Origin: Atribacterota bacterium
Lineage (GTDB): Bacteria; Atribacterota; Phoenicimicrobiia; Phoenicimicrobiales; Phoenicimicrobiaceae
Length of the DNA: 61,350 nt
Assembly (NCBI GenBank): GCA_038203565.1
Contig: JBBRDV010000003.1
Location: 1 to 61,350, forward strand
Reading direction: 5' to 3'
Numbering within the stretch: the first letter of the stretch is position 1; every line of letters begins with the position of its first letter. Of the stretch, positions 1 to 61,335 are shown piece by piece. Both the position numbers and the translations under genes were made by a program. The notes under the pieces are model-generated. The model saw nothing but the letters and a program-made list of their open reading frames with translations. It was not told the origin of the DNA and searched no databases.

Positions 1-304
1 TTTTTTGGCAATTTATCTGGATTAATATTCGAATACATTTTGGCAAGCTCCCTGGAACTTCGATTTCTTGCATATCGAAAAGAGGGACTCTATCCCAGCC
101 TAATTCTCGTGCTGCTTGAGCCGGAAAGGCAGCATTTAAATCAGAGGTGGCACTAAAAAAAACACTTACTATATCTTCGATCTTAAAATTATTCTCTTTC
201 TGTAAAGTAATCAGCAATTCTTTGGTGATTTCTATAATCTCTTCTTTAGTATTGCTATTTACAGTTATCGCTCCTCTTATTCCTCTTATTCCTCTTACCA
301 GCAT
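1..304 (-). CDS. aroH: Chorismate mutase, AroH class (runs off the left edge; not in the ORF track)
   Basis: Manual translation from ATG at 304 (SD AGAGGTG): MLVRGIRGIRGAITVNSNTKEEIIEITKELL...SATSDLNAAFPAQAARELGWDRVPLFDMQEIEVPGSLPKCIRIL. Contains the AroH motifs RGIRGA, FPAxAAR, QE and CIR. Confidence 0.93.
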   Translation of the reverse strand, partial: MLVRGIRGIRGAITVNSNTKEEIIEITKELLITLQKENNFKIEDIVSVFFSATSDLNAAFPAQAARELGWDRVPLFDMQEIEVPGSLPKCIRILIQINCQK

Positions 305-336
305 ATTCTCACCTCTTTTGCTAAATTTATTTCGAC

Positions 337-378
337 AAAATAAAAAAGGCCATAGGAATTTAAAAAACCTATGACCTT
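337..378 (-). terminator. Intrinsic terminator (attenuator) upstream of aroH
   Basis: Minus strand AAGGUCAUAGG-loop-CCUAUGGCCUU (11 bp, one G.U) followed by UUUUAUUUU. Confidence 0.8.
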
Positions 379-477
379 TATATATAAACATATAAAGATA
401 TCATAGGCATAAAACCGATGTCTATGCCTATGATATCTTATTTTTTACTTCTAAGATGTTAAGGCATAAACATCGGT
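337..477 (-). promoter_or_regulatory. Ribosome-dependent transcription attenuator with mutually exclusive helices
   Basis: 462-477 pairs with 414-429 (16 bp, one G.U). 423-439 pairs with 395-411 (17 bp, perfect). About 389-407 pairs with 368-382 (antiterminator). 368-378 pairs with 346-356 (terminator). Confidence 0.8.
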
Positions 478-546
478 GGAATAATAGTAATAGTAATAAA
501 AATCAAAGGAATTTATCGATTTAGTAAATTCTCTATTTATTGCCAC
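451..546 (-). CDS. Tyr/Phe-rich leader peptide, 31 aa: MAINREFTKSINSFDFYYYYYYSTDVYALTS
   Basis: GTG at 546 after AAGGAGTAGGTAAG; six consecutive Tyr codons preceded by FDF; TAG at 451-453; lies between a promoter and the terminator in front of aroH. Confidence 0.85.
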   Translation of the reverse strand: MAINREFTKSINSFDFYYYYYYSTDVYALTS

Positions 547-573
547 CTTACCTACTCCTTAACATTTTTTAAA

Positions 574-602
574 ATATTAGCATACTCTTTCGTCTCTGTC
601 AA
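574..602 (-). promoter_or_regulatory. Sigma70-type promoter of the aroH leader
   Basis: TTGACA, 17 nt spacer, TAATAT with an extended -10 TG. Confidence 0.7.
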
Positions 603-12450: not shown

Positions 12451-12661
12451 AGTATCGAGTATCGAGTATCGAGTTAAGAAAGAAAAAGAAAAGATGGAAA
12501 AAAAGTAGCATTCTTCTTTATTATTTAACTAACCGTACTGAAGTTCATGCTGATAAAAAAGTATCGAGTTTGAAAAACTAAAGAAAAAAGAATATAAAAA
12601 CAAAAGCAAACACTATTCTCCGCTTTCTTATCTATATACTTTATACTCGATACTCGATACT
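12451..12661. repeat. Composite intergenic element bounded by inverted AGTATCG/CGATACT heptamer arrays
   Basis: (AGTATCG)3 at 12451-12471 and the inverse array at about 12644-12661; internal blocks shared with 41986-42064. Confidence 0.7.
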
Positions 12662-12664
12662 GCT

Positions 12665-14206
12665 TTATACGCCATATCCTTCTTCATCATAATTATTGTT
12701 ACCATTTAATATTTCAATACCTAAGTGATATTTTTTAGCAATTTTCTTCTTCAGAAAATCTCTGGCTACTTCCGGAAATAAAATATAAGATAAAATATCT
12801 TCTATATTTTCGGTAAAATATGGTGCTTCCTTTTTAACTTTTTCAATAGAAGGTTCTAATAAATCAGCAGGTCGGCATTTAATTATATCACTTTTATTAA
12901 TCTTTGCCTTCTTAAAAATTTTTGGGTCAATAGGAGCAGGCGGCCGACCATAAAATCCCCTAATATATTTACGAACTTCTTCCGGAATCATCTTATAACG
13001 TTCCTTTAAAATAACATTTAAGGTCGCTTGAGTTCCTACAATCTGACTGGTAGGAGTAACCAGTGGCGGATAGCCTAATTCCTTTCGAACTTGCGGAATC
13101 TCTTTCAAAACTTCTTCATATTTATCTTCAGCTTTCTGTTGTTTTAGTTGAACAGATAAATTAGACAGCATTCCTCCCGGAATCTGATAAGTTAATACTT
13201 GAGTATCAATTCCTGGAATATTTGATTCCATATCTTTGTGATTTTCTCTCACTTTTTTAAAGTAAGCGGCAATTTCATAGGCTAATTTCAAATCTAACCC
13301 GGTATCACGAGATGTTCCTCTCAAGGTTTCCACCAAAGGTTCCACGGCAGGTTGGGAGGTTTGAAGAGCTAAAGAAGATATCGCTGTATCTACCACATCT
13401 ACTCCAGCTTCTACAGCTTTTAAGTAAGCCATCATCCCCATTCCACTAGTAAAATGACAATGCAGTTGAAGGGGTATTGAGACAACTTCTTTAATAGCTT
13501 TAATTAAAGCAAAAGCTTCATAAGGAGAAATTAAGCCGGCCATATCTTTTATGCAAATCGAATCTGCTCCCATCTGCTCCATTTCTTGAGCCATTTTTAC
13601 GAAGGCATCATGGGTATGAACTGGACTTATAGTATAACAGACAGCTCCTTGAATATGAGCACCCTCTGATTTAACCACTTTAAAAGCAGTCTCCATATTA
13701 CGAATATCGTTCAGAGCATCAAAAATGCGGATAATGTCTAATCCATTAGCTATTGCTCTTTTTATAAATTCGGTTACCACATCATCAGAATAATGTTTAT
13801 AACCTAATATATTCTGTCCCCGTAATAACATTTGAAGCTTAGTATTAGGAAGATGCTTTCTTAAAATTCTCAATCGCTCCCAAGGGTCTTCATTAAGAAA
13901 CCGCAGGCAACTATCAAAAGTAGCCCCTCCCCAGATTTCCATGGAATAAAATCCCACTGCGTCTAATTTATCACAGATAGGCACCATCTCCTCGATAGTC
14001 ATCCGAGTAGCTATTAATGATTGTTGGGCATCTCTTAATGTTGTATCTGTAATTTTAAGCGGTTTTTTTAGCTGTGATTTTTCTTTTAAAAGTATATCCT
14101 GGGGAGTATTGTCTTTTTTTAAAGAAATGTTTCCTTCTAAAGCACTGTCATTTATTATTTTTATATCAGAATCTGCTATTTTTATTAATGTTGCATTTTC
14201 TCCCAT
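12665..14206 (-). CDS. Pyruvate/oxaloacetate carboxyltransferase (OadA / transcarboxylase 5S-like, no biotinyl domain)
   Basis: TLRDAQQSLIATRM, WGGATFD, EDPWERL, IKDMAG, HCHFTSG, QIPGGM and LVTPTSQIVG motifs; about 45 aa N-terminal extension. Confidence 0.92.
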   Translation of the reverse strand: MGENATLIKIADSDIKIINDSALEGNISLKKDNTPQDILLKEKSQLKKPLKITDTTLRDAQQSLIATRMTIEEMVPICDKLDAVGFYSMEIWGGATFDSCLRFLNEDPWERLRILRKHLPNTKLQMLLRGQNILGYKHYSDDVVTEFIKRAIANGLDIIRIFDALNDIRNMETAFKVVKSEGAHIQGAVCYTISPVHTHDAFVKMAQEMEQMGADSICIKDMAGLISPYEAFALIKAIKEVVSIPLQLHCHFTSGMGMMAYLKAVEAGVDVVDTAISSLALQTSQPAVEPLVETLRGTSRDTGLDLKLAYEIAAYFKKVRENHKDMESNIPGIDTQVLTYQIPGGMLSNLSVQLKQQKAEDKYEEVLKEIPQVRKELGYPPLVTPTSQIVGTQATLNVILKERYKMIPEEVRKYIRGFYGRPPAPIDPKIFKKAKINKSDIIKCRPADLLEPSIEKVKKEAPYFTENIEDILSYILFPEVARDFLKKKIAKKYHLGIEILNGNNNYDEEGYGV

Positions 14207-40961: not shown

Positions 40962-41190
40962 CCGCCTTTCCTTAGACTGACCTGGTCTTTGCCCCCACAC
41001 TCGCCTGCTGAGAGGTTTGCTCAGGAAATTTGTCCTTCACTACTACTCTTCTCTTATTGTTCTAACCTGTTAGGGTTAAGGCAGGACTTACTCCAAAGCC
41101 GCACCATGCTCAGTAACCAAAGTTACCTTACGTGGGTCGTTTCGCCTGCGACTGGCTTCGACTTTCAACCACAGCTCTAAGGAGAGGCGG
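40962..41190 (-). ncRNA. raiA motif RNA
   Basis: Minus strand ...AAGTCGAAGCCAGTCGCAGGCGAAACGACCCACGTAAG...TGAGCATGGTGCGGCTTTGGAGTAAGTCCTGCC...CAGCAGGCGAGTGTGGGGGCAAAGACCAGGTCA. Matches the recalled consensus, has the canonical comF-raiA position, and a 14/15-bp closing stem. Confidence 0.88.

Positions 41191-61220: not shown

Positions 61221-61335
<115 letters not shown>

Follow-up and report, generated by a model that had tools for sequence, protein, structure and literature searches.

We analysed a 61,350-nt stretch of DNA from an Atribacterota bacterium (GenBank assembly GCA_038203565.1, contig JBBRDV010000003.1, positions 1 to 61,350), referred to below as the window, and focused on a leader region directly 5' of aroH, the gene for an AroH-type chorismate mutase. 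All elements of this leader are located on the minus strand between positions 337 and 602. Very probably, the leader acts as a ribosome-mediated leader-peptide transcription attenuator, in which the charging of tRNA-Tyr and tRNA-Phe would set the read-through into the aro operon; this assessment draws on comparative sequence analysis and on RNA folding models. As far as can be judged from sequence, the leader shows every feature of a classical ribosome-mediated attenuator, namely an open reading frame (ORF) preceded by a Shine-Dalgarno (SD) sequence, a cluster of cognate codons, an intrinsic terminator, and a mutually exclusive antiterminator with upstream helices that depend on the end of the ORF. 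A leader-peptide attenuator with a multi-helix logic like that of the his operon had already been proposed in an earlier sequence-only reading of this stretch, and the comparative and thermodynamic analyses described here lend this proposal strong support.

Leader peptide and alternative RNA helices

The leader ORF (451..546) extends from a GTG start codon at 546-544 to a UAG stop codon at 453-451, comprises 31 codons plus stop and encodes MAINREFTKSINSFDFYYYYYYSTDVYALTS. Its SD sequence, AAGGAG at 560-555, is found 8 nt 5' of the start codon. The regulatory codons are clustered at 507-481, with Phe codons at 507-505 and 501-499 followed by six Tyr codons at 498-481 (in the order UAU UAC UAU UAC UAU UAU). 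A sigma-70-type promoter is positioned at 602-574 and consists of a -35 element (TTGACA, 602-597), a 17-nt spacer and a -10 element (TAATAT, 579-574), the latter being TG-extended (TG at 582-581); we infer that transcription starts near 567.

Across the entire window, no other short ORF that is intergenic, preceded by an SD sequence and located outside known RNA genes contains such a run of a single residue. Other leader-type candidates at 61288 and 41030 were rejected as lying inside 5S rRNA and raiA RNA, respectively, and a further one at ~12529-12613 was discarded as part of a TCGATAC-repeat spacer. Neither a second copy of the element nor any other leader-type attenuator was found in the window.

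The leader transcript can be described by six segments, numbered 0 to 5. Segment 0 (565-543) contains the SD sequence and the GTG start of the leader ORF and can pair with segment 1 (479-456), which falls within the ORF and comprises the codons T-D-V-Y-A-L-T-S at its 3' end. Alternatively, segment 1 pairs via 477-462 with segment 2 (439-414), which uses 429-414 for this helix and 439-421 for pairing with segment 3 (413-390). The latter engages either segment 2 via 413-395 or, via 407-390, segment 4 (383-368), forming the antiterminator. Segment 4 serves both structures: over its full length (383-368) it forms the 3' strand of the antiterminator, and with 379-368 it supplies the 5' strand of the terminator. 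The opposite terminator strand (356-345) belongs to segment 5, which together with the U-tract spans 356-337 and runs into UUUUUUAUUUU at 347-337 (U6AU4).

The helices 1:2, 2:3, 3:4 and 4:5 were each checked base by base. Helix 1:2 (477-462/429-414) comprises 16 bp including one G.U pair, helix 2:3 (439-421/413-395) forms an anti-antiterminator hairpin of 19 bp, helix 3:4 (407-390/383-368) has 16 bp and a 2-nt bulge, and the terminator helix 4:5 (379-368/356-345) has 12 bp followed by U6AU4. Positions 429-421 are common to 1:2 and 2:3, 407-395 to 2:3 and 3:4, and 379-368 to 3:4 and the terminator. The six segments give rise to two folds that exclude each other, 0:1 + 2:3 + 4:5 with the terminator on and 1:2 + 3:4 with the terminator off. 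The promoter, SD sequence, 31-aa ORF, helices and U-run terminator described in the sequence-only reading were all located where it had placed them; its scheme of five segments is conserved phylum-wide, but it had missed segment 0.

The predicted fold of the leader (246 nt) has a free energy of -71.8 kcal/mol compared to -40.9 +/- 3.8 kcal/mol for 200 dinucleotide shuffles (z = -8.1), and the pairing of segment 0 (565-543) with segment 1 (479-456) is present in this minimum free energy (MFE) structure. In 14 JS1-type leaders, RNAduplex yielded 0:1 duplexes of -20 to -30 kcal/mol, and only 0-4 of 200 shuffles were as good. The OP9-type clade features a shorter, AUG-containing 0:1 helix, in which UUAAGG/CCUUAA is replaced by CUAAGG/CCUUAG. 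The individual helices were calculated at -24.1 (1:2), -25.2 (2:3), -15.1 (3:4) and -16.1 kcal/mol (4:5). In combination, 1:2 + 3:4 amounts to -39.2 and 2:3 + 4:5 to -41.3 kcal/mol, and these two states are thus predicted to be nearly isoenergetic, with the switch balanced between them. Including helix 0:1, the terminating fold (0:1 + 2:3 + 4:5) reaches -58.9 kcal/mol.

Conservation and covariation in Atribacterota

The element was found directly 5' of aroH, once per locus, at all loci of 22 Atribacterota genomes that have sufficient flanking sequence. A near-identical leader is present in the nearest genome, Candidatus Sediminicultor sextus (L002 in our numbering). Both Atribacterota clades have likewise kept the promoter pattern TTGACA-17-TGnTAnAAT 5' of the leader.

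The upstream ORF (uORF) was read in 52 homologous leaders with enough upstream sequence, covering loci up to L134 and omitting L010, in which the upstream sequence is too short. All of them (52/52) encode a leader ORF with SD sequence and start codon intact and in frame; JS1-type leaders start with GTG and OP9-type leaders with ATG. The homologous leader peptides comprise 26-38 codons, and their N-terminal halves diverge between the clades. Phe and Tyr account for 5-8 of the 8 codons ahead of a two-codon linker, with a run composition between F1Y6 and F5Y1 and with both synonymous changes and exchanges of Phe and Tyr in either direction. In total, these runs contain 63 TAT, 26 TAC, 52 TTT and 11 TTC codons, and related strains show an in-frame 3-nt length variant (a deletion) within the Tyr run.

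Judged from these alignments, the dense Phe/Tyr run is apparently the sole conserved coding feature of the leader peptide. Given the mixed composition across homologues, the conserved signal would be Phe plus Tyr, and the six Tyr codons in the window a local variant. The expectation that orthologous leaders share a Tyr run was consequently borne out for an aromatic run of mixed composition (F:Y from 1:6 to 5:1), but not for Tyr alone.

Structural conservation was evaluated on 61 distinct sequences, including those from a metagenome scan, which represent two deep clades with aroH proteins ~70% identical; in this larger set, too, the element is present as a single copy and invariably 5' of aroH. 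For the termination fold (2:3 + 4:5), 98.1% of 1891 cells were paired, and two-sided changes were observed in 11 pairs (71 cells), a value reached by none of the shuffles (0/500). Pairing drops to 33-60% when the partner strand is slid. Compensatory changes were detected in six pairs of helix 2:3 and in five pairs of helix 4:5, which was paired in 99.7% of cells. The anti-termination fold (1:2 + 3:4) was paired at 98.3% versus 32-48% with the partner slid, and comprises three covarying pairs, every one of them in 3:4; helix 1:2 was paired at 98.2%. Columns common to 2:3, 3:4 and 4:5 showed chained covariation, e.g. from U-A/A-U/U-A to C-G/G-C/C-G, which is the pattern that alternative pairing would be predicted to leave. 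Covariation in the orthologous leaders, as anticipated in the sequence-only reading, was thus seen in 2:3, 3:4 and 4:5, but not in 1:2.

Proposed mechanism and competing explanations

According to the proposed mechanism, the promoter would drive the synthesis of a ~230-nt leader. When Phe and Tyr are plentiful, the ribosome would reach the UAG codon at 453-451 and cover segment 1; helix 2:3 could then pair, 4:5 and the U-tract would form, and RNA polymerase would terminate ahead of aroH. When Tyr-tRNA or Phe-tRNA is scarce, the lead ribosome would stall in the run, best on its first codons (507-490), leaving segment 1 exposed, while trailing ribosomes or steric hindrance would hold segment 0 off segment 1. 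Helix 1:2 would form once segment 2 has been made, segment 3 would capture segment 4, the terminator would be blocked and the operon transcribed. If no ribosome loads, helix 0:1 would sequester the ribosome-binding site (RBS), resulting in termination by default.

Folding models reproduced the main states of this scheme. Without a ribosome, the optimum was 0:1 + 2:3 + 4:5, and placing a ribosome at the stop codon led to 2:3 and later 4:5. When the transcript was grown with one ribosome placed at Tyr codon 2 and the RBS kept occupied, the MFE structure was 1:2 at first, and 1:2 + 3:4 as long as the 3' end lay within 376-352; in the model, polymerase is then on the U-tract and the terminator decision is made. 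The terminator fold won only after its full 3' arm had been released. A purely thermodynamic model was rejected, as a stalled ribosome with segment 0 free still leads to the terminating fold at equilibrium. Since equilibrium favours termination, anti-termination must be kinetic, as in classical attenuators.

Several points weigh against this reading. At equilibrium, the full-length leader slightly prefers the termination fold even when segment 1 is unoccupied. In an unconstrained model that ignores sterics, 0:1 pairing is not stopped by a ribosome on Tyr codons 1-3 alone, and a ribosome stalled on Tyr codons 5-6 masks half of segment 1. The ribosome footprint used here (+15/-12 relative to the A-site) is a textbook value that enters as an assumption, and the roles of trailing ribosomes and of steric hindrance are assumed as well. 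Furthermore, positions 439-430, which are unpaired in the 1:2 state, are complementary to 404-395 and could, in the model, seed displacement of 1:2 via a pseudoknot. Helix 1:2, which links translation to the fold, shows no double compensatory substitution in the 61 sequences, only one-sided, wobble-compatible changes. On the alignments, it is therefore the weakest link of the scheme, and the support for it consists in conserved complementarity. The missing double substitutions are explicable by the triple constraint on segment 1, which has to serve coding as well as pairing with segments 0 and 2. Finally, public RNA runs (including 'metagenomic RNA-Seq'; Logan) contained only fragmentary contigs of related strains.

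Comparison to known RNA families was performed with Rfam, using E-value mode (E <= 10) for positions 1-1200 and gathering mode for all of the window. At the site, no leader family or riboswitch was detected at gathering score, and the only candidate was the trpB motif (RF04312), with a score below threshold. This best match was full-length with 34.5 bits (336-434, minus strand) against a gathering score of 59, and the corresponding matches in L021 (2858-2954) and L022 (1668-1765) scored 45.6 and 48.4 bits, again below 59. By score, the leader thus falls outside this family, whereas its arrangement matches that described for the trpB motif, with 2:3 corresponding to the P1 hairpin, 4:5 to the terminator and 3:4 to the antiterminator that involves the right shoulder of P1. 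The families Phe_leader (RF01859), His_leader, Trp_leader, Thr_leader, Leu_leader and leu/phe leader gave no match at E <= 10 in the window; in relatives, Phe_leader produced one insignificant match (L019, 27.6 bits versus a gathering score of 55, E = 1.8). Matches to miRNA and snoRNA families at the site were rejected as noise from AU-rich hairpins.

This resemblance bears on the alternative that the attenuator is set by a ligand or a protein, in a riboswitch-like or TRAP/PyrR-like manner, acting via 2:3 or via 3:4/4:5, with the uORF being incidental or modulatory. In its favour, it is precisely the 2:3 hairpin and the terminator half that match RF04312, which its authors consider a strong riboswitch candidate without excluding a classic attenuator (Narunsky et al. 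2024, PMC11109978), and helix 1:2 lacks compensatory covariation. However, the stems covary freely, conserved internal loops or bulges suitable as a ligand pocket are absent, and the invariant bases are those common to two or three of the alternative helices. A ligand or protein switch also does not explain why the uORF, its SD sequence, its start codon and the Phe/Tyr run are kept across deep clades while the peptide itself drifts. We regard this alternative as highly improbable.

A second alternative retains the same RNA switch and assigns a different input to the uORF, which could sense general translational capacity or coupling, or undergo a tnaC-type, aromatic-induced arrest at DVYAL(T/V)S. 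This C-terminal heptapeptide is indeed the best-kept stretch of the peptide, and helix 0:1 ties the default state to ribosome loading. The codons of DVYAL(T/V)S, however, correspond exactly to segment 1, so that RNA pairing constraints suffice to account for its conservation. A ribosome arrested at the C-terminus would mask segment 1 and thereby cause termination, so that an aromatic-induced arrest would only duplicate the repression exerted by plentiful charged tRNA. Moreover, a run of 5-8 codons specifying the end products of the controlled pathway is the hallmark of charging-sensitive leaders. A different input to the uORF is highly improbable.

As a last option, an AT-rich spacer with a tandem TAT/TAC repeat and an ordinary tsaC terminator might have produced this arrangement by chance and without any regulation, given that the stretch is AT-rich (27% G+C), with Phe/Tyr/Asn/Ile/Lys codons and hairpins accordingly common, and that tsaC adjoins; yet such a chance arrangement appears effectively refuted, its probability being close to nil, by the covariation and the uORF conservation, together with the z-score of -8.1, a promoter, uORF and helices kept phylum-wide with compensatory changes, a leader that stays with aroH despite another upstream gene in the OP9-type clade, and a terminator located 3' of a dedicated promoter.

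Genomic context, putative target operon and related systems

The RBS of aroH (AGAGGUGAG, 316-308) and the 5' part of the gene occupy positions 316-2 on the minus strand, with the ATG at 304 and 33 nt between the end of the U-tract and this start codon. The aroH ORF (304..2) comprises 101 codons before the end of the window interrupts the reading frame; its homologues are 124-131 aa long. The encoded product belongs to the AroH-type chorismate mutases (Pfam CM_1, E = 1e-38), in agreement with the gene assignment made in the sequence-only reading. More than 1,100 homologues of the aroH fragment were found, the closest being labelled Atribacterota, Caldatribacteriota or Atribacteria. The start of aroH reads MLVRGIRGIRGA (275-292, minus strand) because of a 9-nt tandem duplication (GGAATAAGA x2). 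MLVRGIRGA is found in all aroH homologues, including a 98%-identical one, and the 9 nt are missing from one related contig.

The upstream neighbour is the tsaC/Sua5 gene (606-1628), the leader being located just downstream of it. One other contig with an identical tsaC was identified, and this contig, too, stops within aroH. Many relatives carry an insertion of 100-200 nt in the 5' untranslated region of aroH, 3' of the attenuator, which is GC-rich and hairpin-rich and resembles a miniature inverted-repeat transposable element (L003, L005, L006, L008, L010, L012-L015, L096 and L132). Its sequence includes GGGGCTCGATTCATCGAGCCC ... GTCATTGCGAGC ... GGCAATCTCAAAT; the window is without it. Contig ends in RNA-labelled runs were considered as transcript ends and rejected, as they reflect strain variation and this insertion.

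Elsewhere in the window, tandem TCGATAC heptamers occupy intergenic positions at ~12455-12482 and ~12640-12665 (minus strand). In L007 and L009, the heptamers are also found 5' of the leader promoter; they represent a recurrent intergenic motif of Atribacterota. Further RNA genes on the minus strand comprise a strong raiA RNA (RF03072, 172.7 bits, 40968-41184), a 5S rRNA at the window edge (61221-61334), and tRNA-Glu(CUC) and tRNA-Gln(CUG) at 2268-2457.

The operon downstream of the leader can be followed in relatives. In a syntenic relative it reads aroH-aroF-aroA-aroE-aroC-aroK-aroB-aroQ, followed by a 227-nt spacer and tyrA, and several of the aro genes abut or overlap. The relatives' operon thereby encodes chorismate mutase, 3-deoxy-D-arabino-heptulosonate 7-phosphate (DAHP) synthase (aroF), the whole shikimate pathway and prephenate dehydrogenase (tyrA), and includes the aroF, aroA and tyrA genes that the sequence-only reading had suggested to look for next to aroH. 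Upstream, the syntenic relative shows the same order as the window (gltX, tRNAs, greA, tsaC, leader), whereas the OP9-type clade has a different upstream gene (serS in L021) with the leader still attached to aroH. On sequence grounds, a combined Phe and Tyr signal fits a transcription unit that would make chorismate and prephenate and feed both amino acids.

Inspection of the aroQ-tyrA spacer of L083 (16985-17212) for a second leader revealed no uORF or motif, and only a G-rich repeat. This repeat is palindromic (CCCTCTCCCCTCGGAGGGAGAGGGTTAGGGTGAGGGGG) and resembles the sequences between terminator and aroH in L004, L011 and L017. No known RNAs were found 5' of aroH in Firmicutes relatives. 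In Anaerolineae (L040, L044, L048, L064, L067 and L070) and in L148, unrelated uORFs with Phe/Tyr runs, such as FFYFYFAYA, YFYYY and FFFYY, precede aroH, and a strong, GC-rich terminator lies between each of them and the gene, close to the latter. These uORFs point to a convergent origin of Phe/Tyr leader attenuation at aroH in Chloroflexota and, in this way, add support to the attenuator reading.

The his leader of Salmonella and E. coli alternates between a terminating state (A:B, C:D, E:F) and a read-through state (B:C, D:E), and termination results when the leader is not translated. The Atribacterota leader shares with it the six-segment layout (0:1/2:3/4:5 versus 1:2/3:4), the run of cognate codons and the default termination. 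In contrast to the his leader, where the His codons are located inside segment A, the Phe/Tyr codons here occupy the loop that connects segments 0 and 1. The two systems also differ in amino acids, operon and phylum, and there is no sequence similarity between them.

Regarding aromatic amino acids, the pheL-pheA system of Enterobacteria likewise combines a leader peptide rich in aromatic codons with termination ahead of a chorismate-mutase gene (PMC11802643, PMC3082878). However, pheL contains Phe as the only regulatory residue and precedes a bifunctional AroQ-type chorismate mutase-prephenate dehydratase, whereas the Atribacterota leader has a mixed Phe/Tyr signal (Tyr-dominated in the window), a monofunctional AroH-type enzyme and a nine-gene operon. 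A precedent for the mixed codon signal is aroR of Corynebacterium glutamicum, a leader peptide with a Phe-Tyr-Phe motif 5' of the aroF operon that acts through ribosome stalling; a response is reported for Phe limitation only (Neshat et al. 2014, as summarised in PMC11802643). Both leaders contain Phe and Tyr codons and precede an aro operon including DAHP synthase, but aroR has three regulatory codons compared to 6-10 Phe/Tyr codons, often with a Tyr majority, in Atribacterota. The phylum and the RNA architecture differ as well, and the first gene of the Atribacterota operon is aroH. With this precedent for a mixed Phe/Tyr aro leader, the novelty claimed in the sequence-only reading was overstated.

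That reading had also contrasted the leader with the T-boxes mostly used by Firmicutes for aromatic genes. No T-box (RF00230) was matched at E <= 10 in positions 1-1200 or at gathering score across the window; since the lineage is Atribacterota (Ca. Sediminicultor; JS1-type class Phoenicimicrobiia) and not Firmicutes, the contrast does not apply.

The trpB motif is known from Firmicutes and Fusobacteria, with more than 900 representatives located 5' of ABC transporters and trpB (PMC11109978). Similar to the Atribacterota leader, it resides in the 5' untranslated region of genes related to amino acids and has a hairpin whose 3' shoulder can serve as antiterminator, separated from an intrinsic terminator by an A/U-rich linker. 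In contrast, a leader ORF is present in the Atribacterota leader and is not part of the trpB model. The resemblance may stem from true kinship or from mimicry at the level of architecture.

Taken as a ribosome-mediated attenuator, the leader represents a classic mechanism in a new lineage and with a new codon signal, and no new regulatory principle. It would extend leader-peptide attenuation to a Tyr-dominated signal, for which a characterised example was not found in the literature searched, and would represent a his-type six-segment design arising outside Proteobacteria. Within the incomplete coverage of our literature search, nothing was retrieved on attenuation in Atribacterota, nor on Tyr-rich leader peptides beyond pheL and aroR. 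It is doubtful, though conceivable, that the leader is the founding example of a phylum-wide, dual Phe/Tyr six-segment attenuator that provides the main transcriptional control of the shikimate/chorismate-mutase/tyrA operon and whose kinship with the trpB motif is real. If this were true, the candidate riboswitch RF04312 would correspond to the downstream half of leader-peptide attenuators, and the leader in any case raises a testable question on this orphan motif.

Atribacterota occur in large numbers in subsurface sediments, hardly any of them have been cultured, and no cis-regulatory mechanism was described for them in the literature searched. As a compact, nearly isoenergetic switch, the leader would be amenable to in vitro work without culturing the host. 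Based on the sequence comparisons, a single switch sensing Phe and Tyr appears to govern the common pathway and chorismate mutase and, in relatives, tyrA. The leader may thus serve as a sequence-readable marker of aromatic-pathway control in Atribacterota.

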